Assembly (NCBI RefSeq): GCF_014280195.1 | Contig: NZ_CP047960.1 | Coordinates: forward strand, 2,100,001-2,132,000 | DNA: 32,000 nt | Direction: 5' to 3' | Source of the DNA: Synechococcus sp. A15-24 | GTDB taxonomy: Bacteria; Cyanobacteriota; Cyanobacteriia; PCC-6307; Cyanobiaceae | Shown here: in pieces, positions 12,470 to 29,170 of the stretch | How the letters are laid out: every line of letters starts with the position of its first letter | Position numbering within the stretch: position 1 is the first letter of the stretch | Made by a program: the position numbers and the translations under genes | Notes under the pieces: generated by a model | Databases searched by the model: none | What the model saw: the letters and a program-made list of their open reading frames with translations, nothing else | Told to the model about the DNA's origin: nothing

Positions 12470-12546
12470 GGCAATACGTCGATCTTGGTGATCCTATGGA
12501 AGGGTGGGGGTTCTGAAACGCCTTTGTCGAGGCCATCAGCTCAGCC

Positions 12547-13668
12547 GTGAATGCCGTGAGTCAGACCGACCAGAAGCCAACTCTCATCATTGGTGGCGGC
12601 CTGATGGGATTGGCAGTAGCCCACCAGCTGGCCAGGCGCGGAACATCTGTTCGAGTGATCAGCCGCAAGCGCAGTGAGGCGGCCGGTTTTGTAGCGGCTG
12701 GGATGCTCGCTCCCCATGCGGAAGGGCTATCTGGAGCACTGCTGCAACTTGGCCAGGCCAGTCTGGAGCTGATCCCACGTTGGGTGGCCCAGATCGAAGT
12801 GGACAGCGGCCTGAGCTGTGGTCTCAGGGCCTGCGGCATCGTGGTCCCGTTCCGAAGCGTTGATCAACGGGACCAATACCCCACGTCCGGTTATGGAGTG
12901 GCCCTTGACCGCGACGAGCTGGAGCACGAACTACCCGGCATCGGCTCTAGCTGGACCTGCGGTCTGTTGTTCGAGCAAGACGGACAGATCGACAACCGCC
13001 GTCAGCTCATGCGCGCCCTTGAACGTGCCTGCGTCTCTCTAGATGTTCAATTTCTGGAGGGAAGCGATGTCAAAGAGATCCAAAGGGATACGTCTGGATT
13101 TCTGAAGGGCGTCGTGATGGAAAGCGCCGAAGGTGAGAGATGCCAGCTCTCTTGCCATCAAGCAGTGCTGGCCTGCGGCGCCTGGAGTCAGAAGTTGATG
13201 CCTGAATTACCCGTGTTCCCGATCAAAGGGCAGATGCTGTCGCTTCAAGGTCCACGGGAAGCGCTCAAGCGGGTGATCTTTGGCCCAGGCACCTATTTGG
13301 TACCGAGGGAGGATGGACTAGTGGTTGTTGGAGCCACGAGCGAACGAGATGCAGGTTTTCAAGAGGGGCTGACCCCCAATGGCCAGAAGCAGTTACAAGC
13401 TGGCCTTGAGTCGCTGTTGCCAGCAGCAGCCAGCTGGCCGCCAATGGAACGGTGGTGGGGATTCCGGCCCTGCACGCCTGATGAAGCCCCCCTGCTGGGC
13501 GAAAGCTCCATTCCAGGACTTTGGTTGACCTGCGGCCATCACCGCAATGGAGTGTTGCTTGCCGCAATCACAGCCCAGAAAATTGCCGAAGTCCTTTTTA
13601 GTGGCCAGAAAAGCTCAAAACTTCTGCACGATTTCCACTGGGATCGCTTTACCAAGGGGCGCCCATGA
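12547..13668 (+). CDS. thiO: FAD-dependent glycine oxidase (ThiO/DadA-type oxidoreductase)
   Basis: 373 aa with the N-terminal dinucleotide-binding fold LIIGGGLMGLAVAHQLARRG and a late GHHRNGVLLA motif typical of DAO-family/ThiO enzymes. GTG start at 12547 (alternative GTG at 12556). Confidence 0.8.
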   Translation: MNAVSQTDQKPTLIIGGGLMGLAVAHQLARRGTSVRVISRKRSEAAGFVAAGMLAPHAEGLSGALLQLGQASLELIPRWVAQIEVDSGLSCGLRACGIVVPFRSVDQRDQYPTSGYGVALDRDELEHELPGIGSSWTCGLLFEQDGQIDNRRQLMRALERACVSLDVQFLEGSDVKEIQRDTSGFLKGVVMESAEGERCQLSCHQAVLACGAWSQKLMPELPVFPIKGQMLSLQGPREALKRVIFGPGTYLVPREDGLVVVGATSERDAGFQEGLTPNGQKQLQAGLESLLPAAASWPPMERWWGFRPCTPDEAPLLGESSIPGLWLTCGHHRNGVLLAAITAQKIAEVLFSGQKSSKLLHDFHWDRFTKGRP

Positions 13669-14986
13669 GCTCAATGCCGGCCCAGAAGAAAGGGTTGGAC
13701 ACCCCATTACTGACGCGTCTTTGTTGAGACGACGTGAGTTGCGTCAACAGAGGCAGGCCTCCAACATCGAGGAGCTCATCACCGGAAAGCTTGATCAAAT
13801 TTCGTATAAACGCTTGGCGGGTCATCTGCATTGCCTCCGCCTTAGGAACTCCTTGTTCCAGAAACCGATACATTTGCACAAAATAAGCTGATGTCACCAC
13901 ATCATCGACATACCAGAGCGTGCCAATGGCGCTGCGCGCTCCAGCCTGAAGGGCCAAGCCGCTAAAACCCAATTCAGCGTCTGCGTCACCCAAGGCGGTT
14001 CGGCAAGCAGAGAACACAACCAGATCGAATGGAGCTCCCTTCCTCGTCTTTCTCAATGTTGAAAGCTGCTTCATTGACAGAGGCCCTGAGCCTGAATGCA
14101 ACTGGGATGCTTCGGGCCCACCCGGCTTGAATTCAGCATGGGTCGCAATATGCAACAGCCCATATTGAGATTCAGACGCCTTGGTCAGAAGAGTGTCTGG
14201 AGTAAAATCCTTGTTTAGAAACTGATCTTTTTTGTCGTCAACGGCAATACGACTGATCTCCTGCGGAACCAGCGGGAGTGATGCAAGACCTTCGAACTGA
14301 GAGGCACCCAAGGCCAAAATCTTACCCTGGGATTGAGACTTAGCCTCAAAATCAGTCAACGCTAGCGATGGAGTAATCGCAAATGCATAACGATCTCCGA
14401 GGAATTGCTCCCCGTCATGGAGCGCCGCGAATGGTACTGCCTGAAGTCCACGATCAGCAGCAATGAGCAATGTCGTGACCTTCTTGGCTTCAAGGACTGG
14501 CTTCAATTCACCAAAAATGAGGGAGTGAATCTGTCGAGAGGGCGACTCGGGTTTGTCCTCATTCAAAGACTCAAGCCTCGAAAGCTGCATGTACAACTGA
14601 CGCAACTGATCTCGAAAAACACTGGATGAAAGCTCGACGCGAAATCCCTCAACATCCCCACTAGAAGGAATCAATGTTATGTCGAGAAATGCATCAGAAT
14701 TAGCAGAAGACGTCCTGCCTTCCGCCTGAGTGAAACGCAAGTGGATCACCGCAGGATTGTATTTTTGAGGATCAAACCCAGGCAGCACTGACACTGACTG
14801 CGTCGACTCTGGATCAGGATTTGGATTAGCAAGGCCGTAAACAGATGTGAACAGCTCTGCTCCGAGAGCGCAGCATGCAAAGCCAAGGCACCCAATCCGG
14901 ATCAAATCAGATCTCAAAGTCGTGAATCTCCGCGGGTATACCAAACAGCCAGACAACTTTTGCAGGAGTCGGAATTGATCAATCAC
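13649..14986 (-). CDS. CHAT-domain (caspase-fold, clan CD) protease with N-terminal signal/anchor segment
   Basis: 445 aa. CHAT hallmarks are the His in LLHIATHAEF (His283, nt 14140..14138), the Cys in LVVFSACRTA (Cys328, TGC at 14005..14003), and the C-terminal NPFFWAGIELMG. A hydrophobic segment IGCLGFACCALGAELF covers aa 31-46. GTG at 14986..14984 is preceded by a perfect AGGAGG 6 nt upstream and shares 1 nt with the tpsA stop. Confidence 0.85.
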   Translation of the reverse strand: MIDQFRLLQKLSGCLVYPRRFTTLRSDLIRIGCLGFACCALGAELFTSVYGLANPNPDPESTQSVSVLPGFDPQKYNPAVIHLRFTQAEGRTSSANSDAFLDITLIPSSGDVEGFRVELSSSVFRDQLRQLYMQLSRLESLNEDKPESPSRQIHSLIFGELKPVLEAKKVTTLLIAADRGLQAVPFAALHDGEQFLGDRYAFAITPSLALTDFEAKSQSQGKILALGASQFEGLASLPLVPQEISRIAVDDKKDQFLNKDFTPDTLLTKASESQYGLLHIATHAEFKPGGPEASQLHSGSGPLSMKQLSTLRKTRKGAPFDLVVFSACRTALGDADAELGFSGLALQAGARSAIGTLWYVDDVVTSAYFVQMYRFLEQGVPKAEAMQMTRQAFIRNLIKLSGDELLDVGGLPLLTQLTSSQQRRVSNGVSNPFFWAGIELMGAPW

Positions 14987-17900
14987 TATTGACCTCCTGC
15001 GATTTGTTGTTGCAACTGTTGCAGAAAATTACTGATCTGCCCAGCCGATGGCGTACGGCGACCTGAAAGTTCAGGCAAGTTCAACGCACCTACAGCTCGA
15101 TCAGTCGCCGCACTGTCTCCTTCAGAAACGGCTGCCAAAGCCTGTGAGGAATCCACTCGTTTGACGTCTACAGCTGCGGATGGTGCCGATTCCTGGTCTC
15201 CAGATCCTCCCTGGTCACCGTCAGAGGTGCCTTCTCCATCTGCGTCAGATTCTGCCTCTGCTTCTCCTTCTCCTTCTCCTTCTCCTTCTGCTTCTCCTTC
15301 GGCTTCTCCTTCTCCTTCTCCTTCGGCTCCACCCTCTCCCTCCCCTTCAGCATCTGCTTCTGTATCAGCCTCGGCGTCTGCTTCATCGGCGCTGTCGTCG
15401 GTTCCACTTTCCTCAGTTGATGTGTCCTCCGAGGAATCAGTGGCAGCTGAGTCATCCGATGGATCAGCTGAGTCTGTTGTCTCGCCCGAAGCTTCTCCAC
15501 TTTCACCTGCAGCTGAGGTTTCGGATCCGGCTGCTGTATCGGCGCCAGAGGAGGCCTCTGAATTGGAAACATCAGGTGTAGAACTAGCAACTGTTGACTC
15601 TGACGTTGCACTAGCCACACCAACGGCGGAAGTCGCACTCGATGTTGTGCCAGAACCCTCAGAGCTCACTGCAGCGACCTGAAACGAGTCACCCAGAGAA
15701 AGATCCACTGACGTTCCCTCTGCAGAAAGACTGGGCGGAACAAGGGATGCTGCGACTGATTCAACTGTGTCACTCACATTCGACGAATCAGTCGAAGAAC
15801 TTGTTTCGGTCGTTGCGGCCACCACTGAAACCACCTCCGACGTTGCGGCGGTGGAAACAGAAGCATTAGGCGACGGAGTTGCAGCTGACGTTGACGTTTC
15901 AGGAGCTGCAGCAACATCCACGGGGGAAGTGGAAGCCGTGGACACAGTCGCTGCTGTTTCAACCACAGCAATCGCAGCCGTAATGGTTTCGACACTGCTT
16001 TCGGCTACCAAATCAGAAATGACCGCATCAGGCGTTACTTCACGCGGCGGCTCAGGCGTTAGTCCACCCAACAGCTCAGGCGTTAGTTCACGCGGCGGCT
16101 CAGGCGTTAGTTCACCCAACAGCTCAGGCGTTAGTTCACCCAACAGCTCAGGCGTTAGTTCACCCAACAGCTCAGGCGTTAGTTCACCCATCGGCTCAGG
16201 CGTTAGTTCACCCAACAGCTCAGGCGTTAGTTCACCCATCGGCTCAGGCGTTAGTTCACCCAACAGCTCAGGCGTTAGTTCACCCAACGGCTCAGGCGTT
16301 AGTTCACGCGGCGGCTCAGGCGTTAGTTCACGCGGCGGCTCAGGCGTCGGCTCAGGCGTCGGCTCAGGCTCAGGCTCAGGCTCCGGCTCAGGTTCCGGTT
16401 CCGGTTCCGGTTCCGGTTCAGGCTCAGGCTCAGGCTCAGGCTCCGGCTCTGGCTCAGGCTCCGGCTCCGGCTCTGGAGTGACCTCACAAACATTCGACGT
16501 GGCGCCATCAGCACAATTGGCTGACGTCGGTCCGGAGCCCTGGACGGCCAGTTCCCCTTCGTTAACGACGGTTGAACCGGTGTAAGTGTTGTCACCCGTA
16601 AACGTGAGTACACCGGAGCCAACCTTTGTGAAACCACCTTCGCCAGACATCACCCCTGAAAATGTTGTGTCGAGCTCATTGCCAGCGGTTAGCTGAAAAG
16701 TATTTAGAACAATCGATCCACCACCGGCGATGGAACCTACACGATCACTTGATCCCAGCTCATAAACAGAGCCTTCGCCAATCAAAACGTCCGTCTCATC
16801 ACTCAAACTTCCGCTCACAGACAGCAATCCGCCACTCACATTGCTCGCACCCGTGTACGTGTTCGCACCACTAAGCGTCAGCGTCCCGCTGCCGGTCTTC
16901 GTTAATCCACCTGTTCCCGAAATCACACCGCCAAATGTTGTATCCGTTCCCGATCCGCCAGCCGTCAGCTGATTTGCTCCCAAACTGATCGATCCACTCC
17001 CTGTAATCGATCCCACTTCTTCATCAGCACCAACCTCATAAGTTGCACCACTGGCAACAGATATGGCCGTCGCGCTACTTAAGCTACCACTGCTGGTTGT
17101 AGTCAACCTTCCACCGCTAATATTTGTGGCACCTGTGTATATATTTGCACCACTAAGCTTCAGCGTCCCGCTGCCGGTCTTCGTTAATCCACCTGTTCCC
17201 GAAATCACACCGCCAAATGTTGTATCCGTTCCCGATCCGCCAGCCGTCAGCTGATGTGCTCCCAAACTGATCGATCCACTCCCTGCAATCGATCCCACTT
17301 CTTCATCAGCACCAACCTCATAAGTCGCCCCTTCACTCACAGACACCGCGGTTCCATCACTCAAACTTCCGCTCACAGACAGCAATCCGCCACTCACATT
17401 GCTCGCACCCGTGTACGTGTTCGCACCACTAAGCTTCAGCGTCCCGCTGCCGGTCTTCGTTAATCCACCTGTTCCCGAAATCACACCGCCAAATGTTGTA
17501 TCCGTTCCCGATCCGCCAGCCGTCAGCTGATTTGCTCCCAAACTGATCGATCCACTCCCTGCAATCGATCCCACTTCTTCATCAGCACCAACCTCATAAG
17601 TCGCCCCTTCACTCACAGACACCGCGGTTCCATCACTCAAACTTCCGCTCACAGACAGCAATCCGCCACTCACATTGCTCGCACCCGTGTACGTGTTCGC
17701 ACCACTAAGCGTCAGCGTCCCGCTGCCGGTCTTCGTTAATCCACCTGTTCCCGAAATCACACCGCCAAATGTTGTATCCGTTCCCGATCCGCCAGCCGTC
17801 AGCTGATGTGCTCCCAAACTGATCGATCCACTCCCTGCAATCGATCCCACTTCTTCATCAGCACCAACCTCATAAGTCGCACCACTGGCAACAGATAGTG

Positions 17901-20277
17901 CCGTAGAGCTGCCAAGGCTTCCACTGCCACTTGTCTTCAACGTCCCGCCACTGATACTTGTAGATCCGGTGTAGGTGTGCACTTGATCAAAAGTCAGATC
18001 CCCTGCCCCAGACTTCACAAAAGATCCTTCTCCACTGATGATCTTCGAGTAAATGGCAGTGTCAGAGGCAGATACCAAATCAATTTCATAAGTTGCACCA
18101 GCAGCAACAGCTACAGCTGAAGACATGGCTGTGCCTACAGACTCCAACGTGCCTGCATTAACAGTGGTATCGCCTGTAAAACTTTTAACTCCAGTCAGGG
18201 AAAGCTTGCCAGTACCATTCTTCCTGAGTATGCCAGTGCCTGAAATTTGTCCAGAATATGTCGTGTTACTGGCCTGGAGAGCCTCTAGGCTGCTAGTCGT
18301 TGATATATTTCCTGAACCACTTAAGCCTCCACTTGAGTTTGCTCTAATATCAATAGTATTCGCGCTTAATTCTGCGTTGACTGCTACTCCACCATCTGAA
18401 TGAAGATTCAGAGCATTGCCGCCTGTAATTGCTTGGTCGACAACAATCGAATCTCCCGAATTAAGAGTTAAGGTATTAGAGCTTGGACTCAAAGTGATAG
18501 ACTGTTGAACTTTAATATCCCTAGACGCAGTCAACGAGACATTCGCGCTGCTTAAAGCCGATTCAATAGTTGAGGGTGTAATAACTGCATCTGTACTTGA
18601 ACCAGTAGCGTTTACTGTAGATACATCCAATCCGCTGGTGTTTGTTCGAGAGAAATACACTCCGGTCCCATCATCCGTTTCGGTTCCGCCTGGAGGTGTA
18701 TAACTCACTGTGATCTGATCGCGGCCACCGTTTTCCCCGAAATAAACTACTAAAGGGTAATACGAGTCTTGTGAAAGGCTAAATGTTGTCGTCGCCGATC
18801 TGTCTCGCGCACCATGAGTCCCACCATTGCTGACAAGTGCGTTAGATGTTGTGATGGTTGATTCGAATGAATCAACAGATTCTGTACTATCGGATCCTAT
18901 CCAAAGGTATGAAGCGTCATCACTTCTTGTTTTGAACGTGAATTGACCACTGGCTGGAGCCTTAAAGTAACCGACAAACCGAACGCTATAGGTATTATCA
19001 AAGTTGGCCCCAGGCGTAATGGTATTAATACTTGTAAACGGTGAAGCAAATCGTGAATCAGATTCAGTGGCAGCCGTGTCGAAGAATGATAAATCATCGG
19101 CAAAATATCCATCGTATTTTGTTCCAGTAAGGCCCGACGAAAACTCATATATATCAATTATAATATCCCTTGGATCTAAGAGCCACAAACCATTAATCCC
19201 TTTCTCAGCTATAGCGTCAATCTGAATACCATAGACGTCGAGCATAAAGCCCGATGTCTCTATGCGACCGCCATCACCTTGATCCCTTCCGCCTCTTGCC
19301 CTAAGCTCACCTGAGATCAGGGTTTGCGATTCGGAGTCAATGATATTACTCCACACCACAATTTCACCGCCATCGCCAACATCGCCAGCAGATGCATCCA
19401 GCACTGCGCCAGCTTCAATAACAGCGCGTTTGGCCTGCCGCACTGTTTCATCACTGTTCTGCCAACTGCCTCCCACTTCAATCGTTCCACCGCCACTGGC
19501 TTGCTCCGCCTTCAAGTGCGTGCCTTCGCCAACAACAACCTCGTCTCCGGTCAACGTCAGCCGTGATGTACTGGCGTCCCCATCACCAACATGGATCGTG
19601 CTTTCACGAACCTCCACCACACCTCCAGGTGCATCGGCGAACAGTTCACGGTCCATGCGGATGTCAATCCCATCCATCTGAATCACAGGAACCGAGCCAT
19701 CAGCTGCCAGGGCATCCAGTATTTCGATCCCACCGAACCCAAGCGAGCCAGGCAGCGGATCTCCCTTGAGCGCCGTTAGTTCAGAAGCCCGGGTCTTGAA
19801 CACATCAAACGTTCCCTCACCGAAACGCAACGATCGCGAGGTGCTCAGATTCAGCTTGGGAACATTGACGAATCCTGCACCTGCGCCGAGATGAATACCG
19901 CCTGGTGACAGCCAGAACAGATTTGCCTTTGAGGAAAGCTCAATCGATTTGTTGATAAAGGAACCCAGCGGTGAGGTCACACCCACCACCAGATTGCGCT
20001 TGCCACCGGTATCAATCTCAACCCCCTTGATCTTGCCGCGCGTGTCGAAATCCTTGAATCGCAGAAATTTGTTGCGTCCCGCCTTATTGCCACCGCTGAT
20101 TTTGCAGATCCCTTCGCTGCAGCTGCCGCCCTTCTTTCCGTTCACCTTGGTCGACAGACCCTTGCCACGACCAGCGCGAATCTCAGCCAGCGCCGATGTT
20201 TGATGCACGACGCCACTCATCCCCAGCAAGACACCGAGGGTGAAGCGAATCACCTTCTCAGGACCTGTATGTGCCAT
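14986..20277 (-). CDS. Two-partner-secretion (type Vb) exoprotein, TpsA / filamentous-haemagglutinin-like, ~1763 aa
   Basis: The ORF runs 14986..20352 from a TTG. The first ATG (20277) gives a Sec signal peptide, [34 protein letters not shown]-domain motifs are [18 protein letters not shown] (compare GxNLFHSFxxF) and [14 protein letters not shown] (compare NPNGI). These are followed by a PA14-like domain, autotransporter-type beta-strand repeats, (PE)19, 13 octapeptide repeats, and an S/T-rich and acidic tail. Confidence 0.9.
14993..14998 (-). promoter_or_regulatory. Shine-Dalgarno AGGAGG for the CHAT gene, embedded in the last codons of tpsA
   Basis: The minus strand reads ...ATC GCA GGA GGT CAA TAG TG ATT.... 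That is AGGAGG, a 6-nt spacer (TCAATA), then GTG (14986..14984), which shares its G with the tpsA TAG stop. Confidence 0.6.
15187..16026 (-). repeat. Low-complexity Ser/Thr/Ala/Val-rich segment merging into an acidic Asp/Glu/Gly/Ala tract ([13 protein letters not shown]...)
   Basis: This covers aa 1443-1722 of the TpsA ORF. It has no hydrophobic core pattern. The acidic (G/A)E repeats lie at roughly 15229-15390. Confidence 0.85.
16027..16338 (-). repeat. 13 tandem 24-nt repeats encoding the octapeptide [PPR/LLG/PMG/PLG]ELTPE
   Basis: The plus-strand unit is caggcgttagttcac(cc/gc)(aac/atc/ggc)(a/g)gct. The minus-strand protein reads PPRELTPE x2, [48 protein letters not shown] x3, [24 protein letters not shown]. 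Confidence 0.92.
16339..16476 (-). repeat. (Pro-Glu)19 dipeptide microsatellite followed by PTPEPTPE
   Basis: On the plus strand this is ggctc(a/c)gg(c/t)tc(a/c)gg... hexamers. It translates on the minus strand as PEPEPE... (aa 1293-1338). I verified the frame at 16474-16482 (VTP). Confidence 0.92.
16534..18255 (-). repeat. Array of ~7 autotransporter-associated beta-strand repeat (PATR-type) units in TpsA
   Basis: The unit recurs as [32 protein letters not shown] plus a spacer with ATYEVG...[18 protein letters not shown]...TTFGGVISG. It spans aa ~700-1273. The outer copies are degenerate. Confidence 0.8.
16726..17880 (-). repeat. Four near-identical tandem coding repeats, period 276 nt (92 aa), with one 282-nt unit (94 aa)
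   Basis: The marker string ctaagc(g/t)tcagcgtcccgctgccggtcttcgttaatccacc recurs at 16871, 17153, 17429 and 17705. The aligned units differ by only a few bases over most of their length. Confidence 0.9.
18649..19140 (-). other. PA14/GLEYA-like (carbohydrate-binding type) domain inside TpsA
   Basis: This covers aa ~405-568: YDGYFADD...[32 protein letters not shown]...[26 protein letters not shown]. It follows the PA14 pattern (G-Y-F...tG.YtF...sDDg..L.i.g...Yp..v.y.e.gG.a...l.w). Confidence 0.7.
19420..20184 (-). other. TPS (haemagglutination-activity) secretion domain of TpsA
   Basis: This covers aa ~57-310 in ORF numbering. It contains [16 protein letters not shown] and [22 protein letters not shown], followed by beta-helix-like Gly/Asp-rich turns. 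The boundaries are approximate. Confidence 0.75.
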
Positions 20278-20342
20278 AGCTACTGCACTGCAACGGGGGT
20301 GGGCATGAGCAGCCCTATGGGGCGCTGAAAGGAAGGTCACGC

Positions 20343-20370
20343 AAATGCGCAACCCCCCACAGGCGCATTT
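20343..20370. promoter_or_regulatory. Perfect 8-bp inverted repeat AAATGCGC-N12-GCGCATTT in the tpsA/tpsB divergent region
   Basis: The arms are at 20343-20350 and 20363-20370, with the loop aaccccccacag. It lies 66-93 nt upstream of the tpsA ATG. It could be an operator or a 5'-UTR hairpin. Function unknown. Confidence 0.3.
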
Positions 20371-20538: not shown

Positions 20539-22215
20539 GTGTTGCTACTGGCCCAGCTGGTCGCCCCGCCCATCCAGCCGGGTCCCGTGCGCCTGCCCAA
20601 TACCGCACCACAACAGCGGCCCGAAGATGATGGATCCCTTTTTGATGAGCCCGCTGAAGCCGCGCCGCAGCCGTCAACCGCTCCCGCAACATCGGATCGA
20701 GAGCAGTCCGGTGAGCAGGCGCTCGACTGGCGTCCCACCATCATTGGCAAGACACCCTATGACGACGCTCAACTCCAGGCGATCCTCAAGGACTGTGGCA
20801 AAGCCAGCACTAACGCCACACTCAACGCCTGTGCTGCAGCACTCACGGCTCAGTTGATCAAGGACGGTTACGTCAACAGTCGTGTCTACAGCCTGAAGAC
20901 CCCAGAACCCGGCGCCCTGGAAGTGGTGCTCGGGACCATTGCGGAATTGCGCATCACCAGCGAGGACGAAGCCCTGCAGAAACAGGTGCAGCAACAGCTC
21001 ACCCCCCTGATCGGCAGCGTGCTCCATATCCCCACACTGGAAGAGGAGCTGGTTCAGGTGCGGCGGCGCGGCGTCGGAGACATCAAGGGTGGGATGGGCC
21101 GCCTGGGAAGCGACCCCACCAAGGCCGTGGTGAACCTGGCTGTTTCACCTGCCGAACCAGAACCGTTGCGAGGTGACTTCTCACTCGGCAACAATGGAAA
21201 TGTTGGAAGTGGTGAATGGCGTGGTGTTGCCACGCTTCTTCAGAAAGGTCTGATTGAACGAGGGGACACAGCTCTGCTGTTTCTGGAGTTGAACAGCGAT
21301 GGTGATCTGGAGTTGGGCAGCAAGGTGGCCTCTCTTACCTACACCTACCCCCTCCGGGACAATTGGTCGATCACAGGGTCGTTTGGCGTCAGCTACAGCC
21401 GCTTTGTGGAATTCCAAAAGCCGGCTTACAACTTCAGTTTCCGTACCCTGCAAGGGCTGCTGCAATTGGAAACAACTCTGCAGGAGTCCGAAAACCTCAC
21501 ATGGACCGCTGCGACAGCATTCAGCACCAATCGCAGTGACAGCTTCAAATCAGGACGCAGTTTTCCCCTCGTCAGCGGCGGTGGGAACGATGGCTGGTCT
21601 CACAGTGGTTTTCTGAAACTCAGCACCAACGTTGGTGGATTTACCGGACCCCTGTTCTGGAATACCAATGCTTATTTCAGCCAGGGTATTGCCGGAGTGA
21701 CCCTCGATGAACACCTGCACAACTTGGATGTTGCAGGAATAGAACCAGGCGAGGCCCGTGCTGTCGGAGCGCTGACTGACATCGGTTTGAGCCTGTCTCC
21801 ATCGACCACCATGAATCTCAGATTCGCTGGTCAGCTTGCCTTCAATCGCCTTCCAGGAAGCATGAGTTTCGGCCTCGGTAGTGGTATTGGCCTGCGGGGA
21901 CTTCCAGGAAGTCTGATCGCTGGGGATAGTGGTTATCTGGCCACAGGGGAAGTTGTTTGGACTCCGTGGCAGAAGGATCAACAACGGATTTCACTGATTC
22001 CCTACCTGGGTATCGGTGGTGTTCACACCAAATTTCCAGACAGGACCTTGGAAGACAGCATCGGTGTGGGTGGGCTGGTCGGCCGCTATCAAAACGGCCG
22101 ATGGGAAGCGGAACTCGGCTGGGTCGACACGTTCAACTCAAACGACAATCCCGGGCTCTGGAACGACTGGATCCTGGGCCACGGGATGTACACCAAGGTC
22201 CGCTACAGCTTCTGA
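20539..22215 (+). CDS. ShlB/FhaC/HecB-family TpsB outer-membrane transporter (POTRA plus 16-strand barrel type)
   Basis: 558 aa. It has a POTRA-like region (YDDAQLQAILKD...GYVNSRVY...LEVVLGTIAELRI), the family motifs SLGNNGNVGSGEWRG (DNxGxxxTGxxR-like) and GIGLRGLPGSLIAGDSGY (L6 VRGY-like), and a terminal aromatic residue (...KVRYSF). The start is problematic: GTG 20539 leaves only MLLLAQLVAPP as a signal peptide (see findings). Confidence 0.85.
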   Translation: MLLLAQLVAPPIQPGPVRLPNTAPQQRPEDDGSLFDEPAEAAPQPSTAPATSDREQSGEQALDWRPTIIGKTPYDDAQLQAILKDCGKASTNATLNACAAALTAQLIKDGYVNSRVYSLKTPEPGALEVVLGTIAELRITSEDEALQKQVQQQLTPLIGSVLHIPTLEEELVQVRRRGVGDIKGGMGRLGSDPTKAVVNLAVSPAEPEPLRGDFSLGNNGNVGSGEWRGVATLLQKGLIERGDTALLFLELNSDGDLELGSKVASLTYTYPLRDNWSITGSFGVSYSRFVEFQKPAYNFSFRTLQGLLQLETTLQESENLTWTAATAFSTNRSDSFKSGRSFPLVSGGGNDGWSHSGFLKLSTNVGGFTGPLFWNTNAYFSQGIAGVTLDEHLHNLDVAGIEPGEARAVGALTDIGLSLSPSTTMNLRFAGQLAFNRLPGSMSFGLGSGIGLRGLPGSLIAGDSGYLATGEVVWTPWQKDQQRISLIPYLGIGGVHTKFPDRTLEDSIGVGGLVGRYQNGRWEAELGWVDTFNSNDNPGLWNDWILGHGMYTKVRYSF

Positions 22216-22782: not shown

Positions 22783-24720
22783 GTGCTGAGCGGAACCGAG
22801 CAGGCCTGGTCCGTTGCGCAAAGCGCTGACCTTTACGGGCTCGAACGCTGGGGAGATCCCTATTTTTCCATCAACGCCAAAGGCCATGTGGTGGTGCAGC
22901 CCCGCGGCGATCGGGGTGGATCGCTTGATCTGGTGGAGTTGCTCCAAGGACTGAAGGCGCGCGACCTCAGCACCCCAATCCTGATCCGTTTCGACGACAT
23001 CCTCGAAGACCGGCTGGAACGGTTGCATGCGGCCTTCGACCGTGCCATCGCCCACTACGCCTACGACGCCAGCTACCAGGGAGTGTTTCCGATCAAATGC
23101 AACCAACAGCGGCATGTGGTGGAACATTTGGTGGACCGTGGCAACCGCTGGAATTTCGGGCTGGAGGCGGGGAGCAAGGCGGAGCTGTTGATCGCGCTTT
23201 CCCTCACCAAGAATCCTGATGCCCTGCTGATCTGCAACGGTTACAAGGACCGCCGCTACATCGAAACGGCGATCCTGGCCAGGCGGCTTGGACACCAACC
23301 CATGGTGGTGATCGAACAGGCCGATGAAGTGGAGCGCATCATCCAGGCCAGCGACGCCCTGGGTGCATCCCCATTCCTCGGAATCCGCGCCAAGTTATCC
23401 AGCCGCAGCACAGGGCGCTGGGGTAGCTCCGTCGGCGAGCGGGCCAAATTCGGCCTGGATCTCACCGAAATGCTGCAGACCGTGCACGCCCTGGAACGCG
23501 CCGGATTGCTCAAGGATCTGCGGCTGCTCCACTTCCACATCGGCAGCCAAATCAACGACATTGCCGTGCTCAAAGACGCTCTCCAGGAAGCCGGCCAGAT
23601 CTATGTGGAGCTAACCCGGCTGGGGGCACCGATGGGACATCTCGACGTGGGCGGCGGGCTTGGCATTGATTACGACGGCAGCCACACGGCAACGGCAGCC
23701 TCGACCAACTACACGCTGCAGAACTACGCCAATGACGTGGTGGCCACAGTTCGGGAATGCTGTGAACCCCACAACGTTCCTGTTCCTGTCCTAGTGAGCG
23801 AAAGCGGTCGGGCCATCGCCAGCCACTTCTCCGTTCTCGTGTTCGACGTGATGGGTTGTGGTCGAACCCCCGACGACGAACCGCCCAGCCAAGACAACGA
23901 ACCCTTGCCCGTGCGCAATCTGCGCGTCACGCTGACCCACATCCGCAGCGTGGAGAAGGAAACAGACCCCGAGTTGCGGCTGCTCCAGGAAGCGTGGAAC
24001 GATGCGATCAAATTCAGGGATGACGCGCTGGCTGCCTTCCGGCTCGGGTACATCCGCCTGGAGGAACGGGCCATGGCTGAGCAGCTCACCTGGAGCTGCG
24101 CCCGCGCCATCAACGAACGTTTGCCAACCAACACCCCCATCCATGACGACCTGAAGGGACTACGGCGTGCCCTGGCCTGCACGTATTACGTGAACCTCTC
24201 CGTGTTCCGCTCAGCGCCTGACACATGGGCCATCGACCAGCTGTTCCCACTGATGCCGATTCATCGCCTGGATCAACAACCAACCGAACTGGGCGACTTT
24301 GCAGATCTCACCTGTGACTCCGATGGAAAGCTTGCGCGATTCATCCACTCAGGACAAAGCAAATCCCTGCTGGAACTCCACCCGCTTGTAGATGGTGAGC
24401 CCTATTGGATCGGCATGTTCCTCGGCGGTGCCTATCAGGAAGTGATGGGCAACCTGCACAACCTGTTCGGCAGCACCAGCGCCGTGCATGTGAGGCTCAA
24501 CCCCAAAGGCAGTGGCTACCTGCTGGATCATGTGGTGAAGGGAGACACCAACGCTGACGTTCTCGAGGAAATGCAACACAACCCAGACCTGATGCTGGAG
24601 CGGCTGCGCCAGGCTTCAGAGGCTGCCATTCAACGGGGAACGTTGAAGATTGAGGACGCCAGGCTGTTAATGAGTCATCTTAAAGCCAGCCTGGATCAGA
24701 CCACCTACCTGCAGGGATGA
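22783..24720 (+). CDS. speA: Biosynthetic arginine decarboxylase
   Basis: 645 aa. It has [23 protein letters not shown], the PLP-lysine context [10 protein letters not shown], and [11 protein letters not shown] start at 22783. Confidence 0.95.
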
Positions 24721-26609
24721 AACGCTTCCGGGAGTTGCTGCAACGCATCGGGCCATACACCGCAGCTGTGTTGGTGCTTGTACTGCTGCGCAGCACAGGA
24801 CTATCCCAAACCATCGATCTGCTGGTCTATGACCTGATCACGACGCAGCGACCTGCACCCTCGGGCAGCGACACACCCATCACACTGATCGGTATTGAAG
24901 AAAGTGACATCCAGCGCTTTGGCTGGCCGATTGACGACGGACTGTTCTGCGAAGCCTTTGACAGGCTTAATGCAAGCGGTGTCGACGTCATCGGTTTTGA
25001 CATCTACCGGGACAAAGGCGTCGGACCAGATCAACAGTGCCTGCGCGATCGCTTTCAAAACGAACCAACGCTGGTGTCGATCTTCAACGTTGCTTCTGGC
25101 ATTGGACCAGTCCCTGGGACGCCGGCGGAACGGCAGTCGTACAACGATCTAAGCCTGGATGCCGACGGAATTCTTCGGCGTGATCTCGTCCATGTCACTG
25201 GACAAGATGAAGCCACGGTGTCCTTCGCTCTACGGGTGATGGAGATCGCGACCACTGACCGCAGTCTGCGACAGGCAATGGACGATGGCACTCACAAGGA
25301 TGCATGGCTGAGCGCCAATGGAGGGGGGTATTACAACGAAGTGGATGCAGGCCTGGGGCTGCAACGGCTGCTTCGCTTTCGGGATCCCTGGAGCTATCCG
25401 CTTTATTCCCTTGCTCAGGTTCTGGACGGCGAGATACCAGAGGAGGCGATTCGCGACAAGATCGTTTTAATCGGCAGTACTGCTCCCTCTCTGAGAGACC
25501 TTTTCAACGTGCCTCACACCCGCTTCCGCAGAAGCGATGAGGTGTTTCAAGTGTCAGGTGTCGAGATCCATGCCAACCGTGTTGCAACACTGCTCGAACA
25601 CCACGTCGGGAGCATCCAGATCGGCTGGATCATGCCTGGCTGGGGCAACCAGATGCTGCTGGTCCTTTGCATCGGCCTGGGCGTACTCCTCGGGGAAGCG
25701 GTGCCCAAACTTCGTCGCAGCGTCCTCCTGGTGCTGACACTTGGGGTCGGTCTCACCGGCGGTCTTGGCTGGCTTCTCTTGCAACAGCATGTCTGGGTGG
25801 GAATGGCGATGCCACTCACGGGCCTACTCAGCATGGGCGGGGCCGGCTGGCTGCGTCGAGGGGCCATGAGCCAGCAACATTCACAACAAATCAAGCAACT
25901 GCTTGGACAAACAACGTCCCCTGCCGTGGCGGAGCAGCTGTGGGATCAGCGTGATGAATTGCTCAGCAACGGACGCTTTGATGGGCGGCAGCTTCCAATC
26001 ACCGTGCTGTTCACAGATACGGCCAACTTCACCAGCGTCTCTGAGGGGCTCAGTCCCCGCGAACTGATGGACTGGCTTAATCGAGGCATGGAAGTATGCG
26101 TTCCCGCCGTAACCCGACGCGGGGGCATGGTGAATAAGTTCACCGGTGACGGAATGCTTGCCGTGTTTGGTGTTCCAATCGAACAGGACGTCAGGGCTGA
26201 AGCCAAGGCCGCTATCGAGGCAGCGCAAGAAATCAAGGTCGGACTAGAGCAGTTGAATCAACAACTTCAAATCGATGGCGAGCCAGCCATGCGGATCAGA
26301 ATGGGCATTCACTCCGGTGATGCGCTCGTGGGCTCAATGGGGAGCGCCGAACGCATTGAATATGCTGTCATCGGCGACACCGTGAATTGCGCCTCACGGT
26401 TGGAAAGTCTGGAAAAGACGCGCCACACAGGAGTTCTGCGGGTGTTGATGTCCAACAACACCCTAGAACTCCTAGATCCGGACTTTCGCAAGCAATTAGA
26501 CCTGCATGGCTGGGGGCCGATGCACGTCAAGGGTCGAGACGAACCGCTTGATGTTTATGAACTCAAGATGGACAACGCACTGGAAGATTCTGAGGCCACT
26601 CAGCAGTGA
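24717..26609 (+). CDS. CHASE2 extracytoplasmic sensor fused to a class III adenylate/guanylate cyclase
   Basis: 630 aa. It has an N-terminal TM (YTAAVLVLVLL), a ~280-aa periplasmic CHASE2-like region (ITLIGIEESDIQRFGWP...VIGFDIYRD...IVLIGSTAPSLRD...GVEIHAN), three TM segments (aa ~305-380), and then a cyclase domain. The cyclase has metal Asp residues in VLFTDTANFT and FTGDGMLAVFG, and Asn/Arg in GDTVNCASRLES. The ATG at 24717 overlaps the speA TGA (ATGA). Confidence 0.88.
   Translation: MKRFRELLQRIGPYTAAVLVLVLLRSTGLSQTIDLLVYDLITTQRPAPSGSDTPITLIGIEESDIQRFGWPIDDGLFCEAFDRLNASGVDVIGFDIYRDKGVGPDQQCLRDRFQNEPTLVSIFNVASGIGPVPGTPAERQSYNDLSLDADGILRRDLVHVTGQDEATVSFALRVMEIATTDRSLRQAMDDGTHKDAWLSANGGGYYNEVDAGLGLQRLLRFRDPWSYPLYSLAQVLDGEIPEEAIRDKIVLIGSTAPSLRDLFNVPHTRFRRSDEVFQVSGVEIHANRVATLLEHHVGSIQIGWIMPGWGNQMLLVLCIGLGVLLGEAVPKLRRSVLLVLTLGVGLTGGLGWLLLQQHVWVGMAMPLTGLLSMGGAGWLRRGAMSQQHSQQIKQLLGQTTSPAVAEQLWDQRDELLSNGRFDGRQLPITVLFTDTANFTSVSEGLSPRELMDWLNRGMEVCVPAVTRRGGMVNKFTGDGMLAVFGVPIEQDVRAEAKAAIEAAQEIKVGLEQLNQQLQIDGEPAMRIRMGIHSGDALVGSMGSAERIEYAVIGDTVNCASRLESLEKTRHTGVLRVLMSNNTLELLDPDFRKQLDLHGWGPMHVKGRDEPLDVYELKMDNALEDSEATQQ
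24789..25616 (+). other. CHASE2 periplasmic sensor domain
   Basis: This covers aa ~25-300, between the N-terminal TM and the triple-TM block. The boundaries are approximate. Confidence 0.7.
25989..26561 (+). other. Class III nucleotide cyclase catalytic domain
   Basis: This covers aa ~425-615. It contains Asp434 and Asp478 (metal), Lys474 (purine-specifying position), and Asn557 and Arg561 (transition state). The second specificity position appears to be Ala550 (EYAVIGD) by pattern alignment. Confidence 0.8.
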
Positions 26610-27183
26610 CGATATCTGCGAGTCCGAACTGACCCAGGGTTGCCTTTGCCGGGACGGTGGCACCACAGCTGTTTCTGAGCTTCGTCAGAGCGGCCTGAAC
26701 AGGAGCATCACTGGCATCTGGCTCTGGAACCAGGAGGCTGACGGCAGGGGGTGATGCTGTTTCAACAAAAGCCAGAGGGTCATCACTCGCCGAACCGTCC
26801 GCCGAGGCGCAATCAAACTCTGATTCCCAAACGGTGGGGGCGCTGATGCTGGAACCACTGATCAAAATCAGTGCAGCTGGCGCGGCCGGGAGTGTCTGGG
26901 TGATCGACGCTCCACCAGATTCTGGTTTAAAGCTGATGTTGAGACTCACAGGGTTGGCGGTAGGCCCCTGAACCAACCCCAGCCCCGATGTCGCTCCAGG
27001 AGCAAACACACTGCTGTCGGGAACCAAATGAGCCAGGATCCGGGCACTGCATTCCCCTCTGGTACCACCACCGACCCTCCGGCCAGGGAAACTACTCCGC
27101 AGATTGGCCTGAGCCAGCGCTGTCATCGGCATGAAGCCATGCAAGGCGCTTAAACCTGCGCCCATTAGGAGGAAAGCCTTCAT
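26563..27183 (-). CDS. Secreted DUF928-like protein
   Basis: The ORF track runs 26563..27285. ATG 27183 gives a signal peptide, MKAFLLMGAGLSALHGFMPMTALA/QA. Just after it comes PGRRVGGGTRGEC, which I recall as the hallmark motif of the cyanobacterial DUF928 family (from memory, not searched). Four Cys are present. The alternative ATG at 27285 directly abuts the stop of the upstream channel gene (TGAATG). Confidence 0.65.
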   Translation of the reverse strand: MKAFLLMGAGLSALHGFMPMTALAQANLRSSFPGRRVGGGTRGECSARILAHLVPDSSVFAPGATSGLGLVQGPTANPVSLNISFKPESGGASITQTLPAAPAALILISGSSISAPTVWESEFDCASADGSASDDPLAFVETASPPAVSLLVPEPDASDAPVQAALTKLRNSCGATVPAKATLGQFGLADIVTAEWPQNLPVRCPS

Positions 27184-27285
27184 GGCGGTGGAATGCATGT
27201 CCATCAAGGGAACTCCAACCCAGCCTGACAACGAATAAGACTCCTGTCCAAACAAACCAGGTATGGGGAGGCCTTGAGAGGCCAT

Positions 27286-28779
27286 TCAGGAGTTCATCAA
27301 CCTGCTGAACGTCTGAGTCATGCGTTCGACCAGACCCAGCTCGAAGGTTTTCTTCTCCTCGAGCGTAAAAGTCTTCAAACCAGCTTCCCGTGTTGCCATG
27401 ACCTTGGCAAATTCTGCCATCGCAGTCTGATTGTTGAGAAAGACGGCTTCAATCTGACTCTGACTGATTTCCTGGAGCAGCACATGACCAGTCGCTTGGA
27501 TCCAAGCCGTACGAGGAGCATCAGTGAGCGCAGAGATTTCTCCAAAAATGGATCCAGACTTAAGCTGTGCAACTTCCATCATTGAAGTCTCATCAGACGG
27601 ATCCGGGATGAGTACAGAGCAGATCCCTTCCATGATCACAAACATCGAGCCACCAATCTCTCCCTTGTTCACCACCATCTCACCAGGGCCAAAAGCCAAT
27701 ATGTTGTCATTACAGACAATGCCTTGAATCTCATCATCCGTTAAGGACGAAAAGAGCTCGATCTTTCTTAGTAAATTAAAACATTTTTCCTGCGCTTCGC
27801 TACTCCGCCGCTCACGCAATTGACGACGAGTTTGCTCGGTACGTAGATCGACAATCGAATGGGGCAGCGAATATCCATGACGCTCAATAGCATACCAAAC
27901 ACTTGAAAAAACCTGGGTTCGGATCCTATTACGAACAGCAAAGTCTGGCACAAAAAATTTCAGCGCATAATTAATTGAGTCGTTACCAATTGATCTGATC
28001 ACAACTGAGCTTCGATCCTTGTTAACGATTTCAACATTCGAGTCCAACACACTCTTCAAAACTCGCATCGCCTGACCAGGTGGCATATTCAGAGGAACGC
28101 CCACTTCGACCTCCAACCGATACTCGGCACGCGAGGGGCGTGAATAATTAATCGTTTTACTATGATCAATGAGCGAGTTAGGAACAACAATATAGCGATC
28201 ATCAGTGTCGTCATAAAGGTAAGTGCTATTCCAAGAAATATTATCGACACGGCCCATCTGGCCAGCAATTTCAACCCAATCACCAACCACATATTGACGC
28301 TCTACCTGAACAGCGAGAGCTGCTGAAATGTTGCTGATCTGCGTGGCAGAGCCTGGACCGACAATGAAGGCAAGACCACCCAGAACAGCCGCAGAACCCA
28401 CCGTTGTCAGCAGACCCTGGCTGTTAAGCTCAGCCGCCACAACAACGAAAGCTGCTGCCACAAGTGCCAAATCCTTGAGGATCCGCGGCGGGGCCACCCC
28501 TCGAGAACTCAAACGGATGACCAAAGCCCAAATCACATCGAGGGCCAGCTCCACGAAGGCGACATAGAGGCCGGTTTTGGCAACGACAGCGATCCAGTCG
28601 ACAATGTCTCCCTCGAGCCCAGCACCCTGCAGCCCATTACTCAGAAGAGCCGCCGCGAGTGATACGCGGAAAAACACCATGCTTGGGATGAGGCGACTCA
28701 ATCGACTTGACCCCAACTGACGAATTCTCCCAAGCAGGAATGTCAGCAGAAAAGGGATAATTAGCAGCAAACTTCCCAT
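27286..28779 (-). CDS. MscS-family mechanosensitive channel with C-terminal cyclic-nucleotide-binding domain (bCNG-type)
   Basis: 497 aa. It has N-terminal TM helices, an MscS pore/beta domain (GGLAFIVGPGSATQISNISAALAVQVERQYVVGDWVEIAGQMGRVDNISWNSTYL) and a cNMP-binding domain with the phosphate-binding cassette FGEISALTDAPRTAWIQA (Glu414, Arg423). Confidence 0.88.
   Translation of the reverse strand: MGSLLLIIPFLLTFLLGRIRQLGSSRLSRLIPSMVFFRVSLAAALLSNGLQGAGLEGDIVDWIAVVAKTGLYVAFVELALDVIWALVIRLSSRGVAPPRILKDLALVAAAFVVVAAELNSQGLLTTVGSAAVLGGLAFIVGPGSATQISNISAALAVQVERQYVVGDWVEIAGQMGRVDNISWNSTYLYDDTDDRYIVVPNSLIDHSKTINYSRPSRAEYRLEVEVGVPLNMPPGQAMRVLKSVLDSNVEIVNKDRSSVVIRSIGNDSINYALKFFVPDFAVRNRIRTQVFSSVWYAIERHGYSLPHSIVDLRTEQTRRQLRERRSSEAQEKCFNLLRKIELFSSLTDDEIQGIVCNDNILAFGPGEMVVNKGEIGGSMFVIMEGICSVLIPDPSDETSMMEVAQLKSGSIFGEISALTDAPRTAWIQATGHVLLQEISQSQIEAVFLNNQTAMAEFAKVMATREAGLKTFTLEEKKTFELGLVERMTQTFSRLMNS
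27415..27777 (-). other. Cyclic-nucleotide-binding domain of the MscS-type channel
   Basis: This covers aa ~335-455: LLRKIELFSSLTDDEIQGIV...GEMVVNKGEIGGSMFVIMEG...GSIFGEISALTDAPRTAWIQATGHVLLQEI. Confidence 0.85.
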
Positions 28780-28810: not shown

Positions 28811-29170
28811 TCATTTGATGATCATCACGCAAAGCACCCACAACAACTTGCAACCCAAGTGAAGAGCCTGGTCAACGATGAGCCTGTAACCAAGTCGACA
28901 TTTTCCGAAGTCGATCAGAAAATGACAGGCCATCTCTGCCAACCCTAGGACTGGAATGCCAGTCAAGATTGCGACAAAAAAGCCATGGGTTCCCGCATGA
29001 GCTGAGAGCCACCACCGCCAACTCAGAGTCACGTCCTTGCCAGGACATTTCTCAACCGCCATTTTGTCACCCTGCAGAGGGTAATCAGCGACAAAGTGAC
29101 CAAGCAGTAAAAGGATGAGGAGGTCCAACGGTTGAACTGCTGTATTTAGAAAAAGAGTCATGGCTGCCAT
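28811..29170 (-). CDS. Small polytopic membrane protein, DUF3307-like
   Basis: 119 aa (or 116 aa from ATG 29161). GHFVADYPLQ resembles the HxxxDxxLQ motif I associate with DUF3307. Further His residues sit in hydrophobic helices (SAHAGTHGFF, ACHFLIDF). It is co-directional with alaS (51 nt upstream) and the channel gene (31 nt downstream). Confidence 0.6.
   Translation of the reverse strand: MAAMTLFLNTAVQPLDLLILLLLGHFVADYPLQGDKMAVEKCPGKDVTLSWRWWLSAHAGTHGFFVAILTGIPVLGLAEMACHFLIDFGKCRLGYRLIVDQALHLGCKLLWVLCVMIIK

Follow-up and report, generated by a model that had tools for sequence, protein, structure and literature searches.

Genes and residues at the locus

The 32,000-nucleotide stretch of Synechococcus sp. 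A15-24 analysed here (contig NZ_CP047960.1, positions 2,100,001 to 2,132,000; hereafter the window) belongs to a marine Synechococcus in subcluster 5.1. It holds a predicted adenylate cyclase with a periplasmic CHASE2 sensor domain (630 aa, 24717..26609, plus strand), a convergent gene for a small secreted protein related to DUF928 (about 206 aa from M35, 26563..27183, minus strand), and a gene for an MscS-type channel with a cyclic nucleotide-binding (CNB) domain (497 aa, 27286..28779, minus strand). An original prediction, made from the sequence alone, had proposed that these three genes form a self-contained cyclic nucleotide circuit. The genes were recovered at the predicted coordinates when the open reading frames (ORFs) were re-read, but the circuit does not stand on its own: its genes are part of a conserved set of TpsB, giant exoprotein, CHAT, DUF3307, DUF928-like and CHASE2 genes. 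We consider it probable, at about 0.6, that this set is the picocyanobacterial version, with cyclic AMP (cAMP) as output, of a conserved cyanobacterial envelope-sensing module.

The cyclase was characterised by Pfam and by alignment to PDB structures. CHASE2 covers residues 17-323 (about 24765-25685; E = 4e-49) and Guanylate_cyc covers residues 427-609 (E = 9e-21; catalytic domain about 25995-26543), with hydrophobic segments at 314-354; an N-terminal transmembrane helix and a possible third C-terminal helix were judged by eye. This is the layout of a CHASE2 receptor, in which the extracytoplasmic CHASE2 domain lies between an N-terminal transmembrane helix and a transmembrane bundle, with the output domain downstream, and by this layout the protein is classed as a new member of the CHASE2 cyclases. 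It shares 99% identity with metagenomic proteins and 73% with the cyclase of Synechococcus sp. RS9902, and its nearest solved homologue is Cya2 (E = 1e-26, PDB search).

When the cyclase is aligned to Cya2, CyaB and CyaC, D434 and D478 fall on the metal sites, N557 and R561 on the transition-state sites, and K474 and A550 on the first and second base-specifying positions, while R528 also aligns. The original prediction, which had itself proposed alignment to solved cyclases, had numbered D434, K474, D478, A550, N557 and R561 correctly. In 69 relatives, which are the CHASE2 cyclases from related loci, D434, K474, D478, R528, N557 and R561 are invariant down to about 36% identity, and position 550 is Ala in 68 and Gly in one. 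Judged by these alignments, the cyclase keeps every residue needed for activity.

The original prediction had left the identity of the product open, whereas the residues point to cAMP. The position of Lys474 is occupied by Glu488 in Cya2, and the second specificity position is Thr in CyaC and CyaB, Gly in Cya2 and Ala here. The single change E488K makes Cya2 a specific adenylate cyclase with minor turnover of the other nucleotide, while Gly is kept at the second position (PMC5995499). Given that Lys474 is invariant among the relatives and that E488K yields an ATP-specific enzyme, cAMP is the expected product, and since the engineered Lys/Gly enzyme is ATP-specific, Ala at the second position is probably compatible with this.

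The channel was assigned from the Pfam domains MS_channel_2nd, MS_channel_3rd and cNMP_binding. Its MscS core (about 27832-28455) aligns with residues 78-279 of E. coli MscS (E = 2e-13), and its CNB domain (about 27433-27693) corresponds to the cNMP_binding match at residues 363-449 (E = 2e-13). The phosphate-binding cassette FGEISALTDAPRTAWIQA begins at residue 412 (27493-27546), where it had been predicted. It contains FGE...PRTA, which is kept in relatives, and almost all of 52 related channels, a set of two paralogue types, retain its core G-E...R-[ST]-A. The Gly-Glu pair and the Arg-Thr-Ala triplet, which hold the ribose and the phosphate, are intact, and on this evidence the binding domain keeps every residue needed for activity. 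With an MscS pore and cage and an intact CNB domain, the protein is assigned by sequence to the bCNG (bacterial cyclic nucleotide-gated) family as a new member, with gating by cAMP predicted.

The original prediction had also noted that the Arg-Thr-Ala triplet is the form of PKG/CNG-type sites for cyclic GMP (cGMP), and as an argument for cGMP this is weak. The CNB domains of PKA, PKG, HCN and SthK all match that of the channel, those of PKA, HCN and SthK as well as that of PKG. Given that the triplet also occurs in cAMP-preferring HCN channels, it is not diagnostic of cGMP versus cAMP.

The middle ORF, assigned by alignments and hhalign, has a longest form of 240 aa (26563-27285, minus strand). 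Alignment indicates that the real start is probably M35 (27183) and not the ORF start at 27285, which gives the signal peptide MKAFLL...ALAQA. The original prediction had called it a secreted DUF928 gene: the signal peptide stands, whereas a direct match to DUF928 does not, as the Pfam model gives none for this protein even at E<=10. The NCBIfam scan of the ORF returned nothing, seven distant relatives have no Pfam match at E<=1, and 120 close relatives carry no precomputed Pfam domain. A remote kinship to DUF928 is nevertheless supported by profile comparison, since hhalign against true DUF928 gives a probability of 98.3% (E = 1.5e-14 over 131 columns) and a search with the family profile extends, in its tail, to true DUF928 proteins (E = 4e-5), among them P0510 (Pfam DUF928, E = 7e-34). 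Hence, as judged from profiles, the protein is divergently related to DUF928 and differs in its C-terminal third.

The family is narrow, with 163 matches at E<=1e-3 among 1.84 billion representative proteins. Its members share a signal peptide, four invariant Cys and a C-terminus conserved to the last residue, and the invariant motif FPGRRVGGGTRGEC directly follows the predicted signal-peptide cleavage site. An AlphaFold2 model from a 27-sequence alignment (pLDDT 87.6) predicts a beta-sandwich with a helical C-terminal part; a model from 18 close relatives was discarded (pLDDT 48.6). Foldseek against PDB produced weak FN3/Ig-like matches, none at E<=1e-3, and the predicted fold thus gives no functional lead. 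Similarity to the family was also observed in larger proteins: FPGRYIWGGTRDEC, which is close to the N-terminal motif, is repeated five times or more in P0508, an 884-aa BspA-type leucine-rich-repeat protein, and the giant protein P0465 (2397 aa) matches the central region 12 times.

The cyclase and DUF928-like genes overlap at their 3' ends by 47 nt (26563..26609, both strands; from the ORF coordinates, both stop codons counted). As had been predicted, the overlap begins just after the cyclase domain, at codon 616, which directly follows the final conserved motif of the cyclase, VKGR.EPL.V.EL. One strand of it codes for the variable tail of the cyclase (codons 616-630) and the other for the invariant DUF928-like C-terminus EWPQNLPVRCPS.

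On the plus strand, the cyclase follows speA, the gene for biosynthetic arginine decarboxylase (22783..24720; Pfam), whose stop codon shares ATGA with the cyclase start (24717-24720, a 4-nt overlap; junction read from the sequence). Given this overlap, speA and the cyclase probably form one transcript, and the cyclase is probably translationally coupled to this polyamine-synthesis gene; polyamines, osmotic balance and the channel may conceivably be linked. On the minus strand, a DUF3307 gene (28811..29170; Pfam), which encodes a small membrane protein of 119 aa with about three hydrophobic segments, is the first of a string that continues with the channel and the DUF928-like gene. This arrangement, head-to-tail on the same strand and behind DUF3307, is consistent with the predicted co-transcription of the channel and secreted-protein genes.

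Upstream of the cyclase region lie ndk and the two-partner secretion (TPS) and protease genes. TpsB (20539..22215, plus strand; Pfam) is a ShlB/FhaC-type outer-membrane transporter with POTRA_2, both domains being above the cut-off (ShlB, E = 9e-8; POTRA_2, E = 3e-5). It is divergent from a gene for a giant exoprotein of 1788 aa (14986..20352, minus strand), in which a domain search found PATR repeats and PA14/GLEYA. The N-terminal TPS secretion domain of the exoprotein falls below threshold (E = 5.4e-6, 27 bits versus a cut-off of 33.5), and the protein is probably the TpsA cargo. The CHAT (caspase-like) protease (445 aa, 13649..14986, minus strand; Pfam, E = 4e-49) keeps the His (HIATHAEF) and Cys (FSACRTA) motifs of the His/Cys dyad. 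The exoprotein stop overlaps the CHAT start by one base (14986), and in two related loci (L071 and L075) the two are fused into a single protein of 1320-1764 aa; the window may therefore carry a split version of one gene.

Within the window, the channel is the sole protein with a CNB domain and the cyclase is the sole cyclase. The GC content at third codon positions (GC3) of the module genes is 0.45-0.63 (CHAT 0.51, exoprotein 0.45, channel 0.51, DUF3307 0.54), versus 0.72-0.81 in housekeeping neighbours, which suggests lateral exchange or different expression constraints. An Rfam scan of the whole window gave no matches. A 180-aa ORF upstream of a DAO-family oxidoreductase (12008-12550, plus strand) has no Pfam match; at the counterpart position, RS9902 carries a gene for a cyclic nucleotide-binding protein.

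Conservation of the locus

A scan of one genome per species yielded 74 picocyanobacterial loci that span Synechococcus 5.1, 5.2 and 5.3, Cyanobium and Prochlorococcus, and these loci were searched with the window proteins. The cyclase and the channel co-occur in related genomes, as the original prediction required. The DUF928-like gene is directly beside the CHASE2 cyclase in 64 of the 66 loci with a cyclase, 54 of these pairs being convergent and 10 co-directional with the DUF928-like gene ahead of the cyclase, and it is the cyclase's most constant neighbour. Hence, the earlier description of this gene as wedged between cyclase and channel gives way to another: it is the cyclase's primary partner, whereas the channel moves about more.

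Where convergent-type loci have at least 7 kb on both flanks, a full-length MscS-CNB channel is present in 24 of 25, a CHAT gene in 23 of 25 and a ShlB-type gene in 24 of 25. The channel takes five different positions relative to the cyclase. While speA adjoins the cyclase in subcluster 5.1 loci, as in the window, the 5.3-type loci have the string speA, channel, cyclase. The same string is found in MIT S9503 (L071), where the channel stop and the cyclase start share ATGA (4-nt overlap). The Cyanobium-type loci are contiguous: ShlB is followed by the exoprotein-CHAT, DUF3307 and DUF928-like genes in one direction and then, convergently, by the cyclase with the channel upstream of it. DUF3307 adjoins the DUF928-like gene in most loci, and CHAT is immediately upstream of it in most non-5.1 loci.

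Two distant channel relatives (P0358 and P0346) have a CHASE2 cyclase within 10 kb, and both neighbourhoods also contain, within 10 kb, a gene of DUF928-like size (about 215 aa) with no Pfam match. By a rough estimate that assumes five MscS-CNB copies per 2.4 Mb, the chance of one lying within 10 kb is about 4%. Overall, the channel is tied to the CHASE2 cyclase and its partners in about 45 species, and the cyclase-channel linkage is real.

Some loci differ in content. One (L055, 10001-11740) has ample flank and no cyclase, its DUF928-like gene converging directly on the MscS-CNB gene, as though a cyclase once between the two had been lost by deletion. In two others the alaS-speA interval (L001, 13150-16611; L002, 14632-15525) also encodes a CNB-MGS-like protein, and L001 alone has a second CHASE2 cyclase beside a FecR-domain gene and a phosphofructokinase gene; neither feature has a counterpart in the window. 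The alaS-speA interval behaves as a variable cyclic-nucleotide gene island. Seven contigs (L005, L014, L037, L041, L048, L056 and L058) come from bins labelled Rubripirellula, Gammaproteobacteria, Bordetella, Rhizobium, Pimelobacter, Crocinitomicaceae or Salipiger, and are probably mis-binned.

Beyond picocyanobacteria, a metagenome scan for canonical DUF928 gave four loci. The general pairing of DUF928 with CHASE2 is drawn from four loci with both genes (L080/L082, L085, L087 and L088), one further locus (L086) and one mention in the literature. The CHASE2 gene encodes a CHASE2-GGDEF-EAL protein in L080/L082, L085 and L087, and a CHASE2-histidine kinase-receiver protein in L088. Giant proteins with clear TPS domains flank L080, L086 and L088, and CHAT proteins flank L085 and L088. 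In L086, DUF928 is beside a TPS gene only, on a contig too short to show a CHASE2 gene; the contigs of P0498 and P0507 were likewise too short. A paper on WD40 proteins mentions in passing a cluster of CHASE2 and DUF928 in Nostoc punctiforme. Given that DUF928 accompanies CHASE2 proteins of differing output, the partnership follows the sensor and not the output domain, and mainly for this reason the DUF928-like protein is placed on the input side of the pathway.

An envelope-sensing reading and its alternatives

The envelope-sensing reading is built on the observed domain content, functional-residue conservation and gene linkage, from which the cyclase product, all contacts between proteins and the direction in which regulation runs are predicted. 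An envelope cue would be handled by the TPS exoprotein and CHAT together with the DUF928-like protein. The gene linkage suggests that the periplasmic CHASE2 domain works with this beta-sandwich protein, which may act as ligand, co-receptor or inhibitor, and the signal probably has to do with two products encoded nearby, the giant adhesin of the two-partner secretion type and the CHAT protease. It would then cross the membrane to a class III cyclase dimer that, by its residues, is predicted to make cAMP. On the evidence of domains and linkage, cAMP would bind the C-terminal CNB domain of the channel and alter its gating, so that the net effect would be the conversion of an envelope cue into a flux of ions or osmolytes.

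A more ambitious version of this reading is doubtful. According to it, TpsB, the giant exoprotein with CHAT, DUF928 and CHASE2 would constitute an undescribed and widespread cyanobacterial pathway from the surface to a second messenger. The secreted CHAT protease would process or release the DUF928 protein, perhaps by cleavage at its invariant RR...TRG motif, and would thereby create or remove the CHASE2 ligand. In picocyanobacteria the resulting cAMP would open the MscS-type channel, and a particle, grazer or phage that touches the cell surface would thus set off a rapid flux of ions or osmolytes.

Several observations weigh against the envelope-sensing reading. The second specificity residue of the cyclase is Ala550 and not the Asp or Thr of class III adenylate cyclases, and we know of no natural Lys/Ala cyclase that has been assayed. 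The ten co-directional loci, which come from certain Prochlorococcus and freshwater Synechococcus, lack a channel within 10 kb (0/7 among those with good flanks), which indicates that the channel is not an obligatory member. Almost every locus is bordered by alaS and speA/ndk, so part of the linkage may be inherited synteny that inflates the counts, and many of the 74 species are close relatives. Many related loci also hold extra CNB-only proteins and a second cyclase, and cAMP therefore probably has other targets. Finally, according to a 2026 review, it is not yet known what part cyclic nucleotides play in bCNG gating.

Some of these points would also be expected if the linkage were historical only, with a stable alaS-speA slot, a channel that answers the general cAMP pool and a DUF928-like protein with an unrelated envelope role. 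This explanation is unlikely. It is favoured by the alaS and speA/ndk genes that border almost all loci, by the co-directional-type loci without a channel, and by the other CNB proteins and the second cyclase in the same region of relatives. However, the set has been retained in streamlined genomes across five or more rearrangements, and the channel stands in an operon-like string either with the cyclase (4-nt overlap) or, in the window, with the cyclase's partner gene. Moreover, canonical DUF928 pairs with CHASE2 receptors of other output in distant cyanobacteria, which picocyanobacterial synteny cannot explain. These operon-like placements and the distant pairing are hard to attribute to inherited synteny. 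The geometry would permit the two transcripts to regulate each other as antisense RNAs, but we also think it rather improbable that the 47-nt overlap is a regulatory device, in which interference or mutually antisense 3' ends would produce either/or expression. The overlap is near-universal, being present in 53 of 54 convergent adjacent pairs of other species and of identical length (exactly 47 nt) in 29, and is thus not due to chance; furthermore, no terminator-like site was found in or next to it, in a promoter and terminator scan that was overall at chance level. Yet RS9902 and WH7803 lack it, ten loci are co-directional, and conservation at the protein level is confined to the DUF928-like side, the cyclase tail being variable, so the overlap can persist passively. 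Hence, it is equally explained by an invariant secreted-protein C-terminus encoded opposite a variable cyclase tail.

That the circuit uses cGMP instead, with a guanylate cyclase like Cya2 and an Arg-Thr-Ala cassette that binds cGMP, is highly improbable. Although Cya2 is the best PDB match, PKG domains are among the top CNB matches and the second specificity residue is small in both cyclases (Ala here, Gly in Cya2), the Glu of Cya2 is replaced by a Lys that is invariant in 69 of 69 relatives, the single E488K change suffices to make Cya2 ATP-specific, and the Arg-Thr-Ala triplet is also found in cAMP-preferring CNB domains. Very unlikely, too, is a Pycsar-like or abortive-infection defence, in which the cyclase would respond to damage of the envelope or to adsorbing phage outside the cell, make a cyclic nucleotide and so lead the CNB-gated channel to depolarise the cell or kill it. 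The PADLOC PycC models match the cyclase domain (E = 1e-28), Pycsar effector CNB models match the channel weakly, the CHAT protein matches the PADLOC model BovA, and the GC3 of the module is lower than that of its neighbours. However, the PADLOC matches reflect generic homology of class III and CNB domains, the locus holds one syntenic position in about 70 species and is not patchy, and the cyclase combines a periplasmic sensor with a purine-type Lys, while described Pycsar cyclases use other base-recognition residues. Pycsar systems pair a stand-alone cytosolic pyrimidine cyclase with a CNB-domain effector, either a membrane or a TIR protein, and are scattered among defence islands. Membership in Pycsar was thus rejected, given the membrane CHASE2 sensor, Lys474, synteny in 74 species and PADLOC matches at the level of domains only.

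Comparison with known systems

Although bCNG channels have been known since 2010, their physiological role is unknown according to the 2026 review. For CHASE2, a sensor domain of common occurrence, practically no ligands are known, and DUF928 is mentioned in a single paper within the 8-million-paper literature that was searched. The locus links all three in some of Earth's most abundant phototrophs. It names candidates, namely a cyclase that may feed the channel and a secreted protein and a protease that may act on the sensor, and thereby offers a testable role for bCNG channels and for a CHASE2 ligand. Given that cultured strains with the locus include WH7803, RS9902, MIT S9503 and Prochlorococcus MIT 0707, direct experiments are possible.

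In comparison with the bCNG family, that is, MscS-like channels of bacteria that are gated by cyclic nucleotides (Caldwell et al. 2010, Malcolm et al. 2012, as cited in PMC13591265), the channel has the same MscS-type pore helix, cytoplasmic cage, linker and C-terminal CNB domain, and the family is mostly cyanobacterial. Unlike in the bCNG papers that were searched, it is tied to a CHASE2 cyclase and further partners, and its gating by cAMP is predicted. The original prediction had held that a dedicated sensor cyclase is not part of the bCNG description, and this agrees with the searched literature, in which neither such a cyclase nor a gene neighbourhood of bCNG channels is described (the original bCNG reports lie outside this search). 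The cyclase shares its architecture and a small second-specificity residue with Cya2, the CHASE2-regulated guanylate cyclase of Synechocystis PCC 6803 (PDB 2w01), and differs from it in Lys474 in place of Glu488, which predicts ATP as substrate.

The secreted protein resembles DUF928 (PF06051), a family of secreted proteins of cyanobacteria, in its signal peptide followed by FPGRR[VI]GGG[ST]R..C, its beta-rich core with W..S..C and its CHASE2 receptor neighbour, yet it fails the Pfam model and has the C-terminal third CG..VP...FGL.D...WP..LPVRCPS. The ShlB and POTRA transporter divergent from a giant repeat exoprotein recalls two-partner secretion (FhaC/FhaB, ShlB/ShlA), and the His/Cys dyad is kept as in CHAT proteases (HetF). 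In contrast to the described TPS and CHAT systems, CHAT is here fused to, or placed after, a TpsA-like cargo and is paired with DUF928 and CHASE2. No description of a conserved combination of CHASE2, DUF928-like, CHAT and TPS genes was found in the searched literature, and the gene module appears to be undescribed. The locus resembles Pycsar in that a class III-type cyclase stands beside a membrane effector with a CNB domain, and differs in its periplasmic sensor, its purine-type Lys, its vertically inherited syntenic locus and its MscS channel effector.

A functional parallel may be found in Sinorhizobium (S.) meliloti, whose CHASE2 adenylate cyclases CyaD1, CyaD2 and CyaK are reported to need NsrA, a beta-barrel protein of the outer membrane, to sense a protein signal and act through the effector Clr. 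The two systems share a CHASE2 adenylate cyclase, an outer-membrane beta-barrel partner (by protein type), a CNB effector and, as proposed here, a proteinaceous cue. They differ in that the S. meliloti effector is a Crp-type transcription factor and not a channel, and in that neither DUF928 nor CHAT is reported there. By this analogy, the S. meliloti CHASE2 cyclases provide a precedent for the first steps of the chain proposed here.

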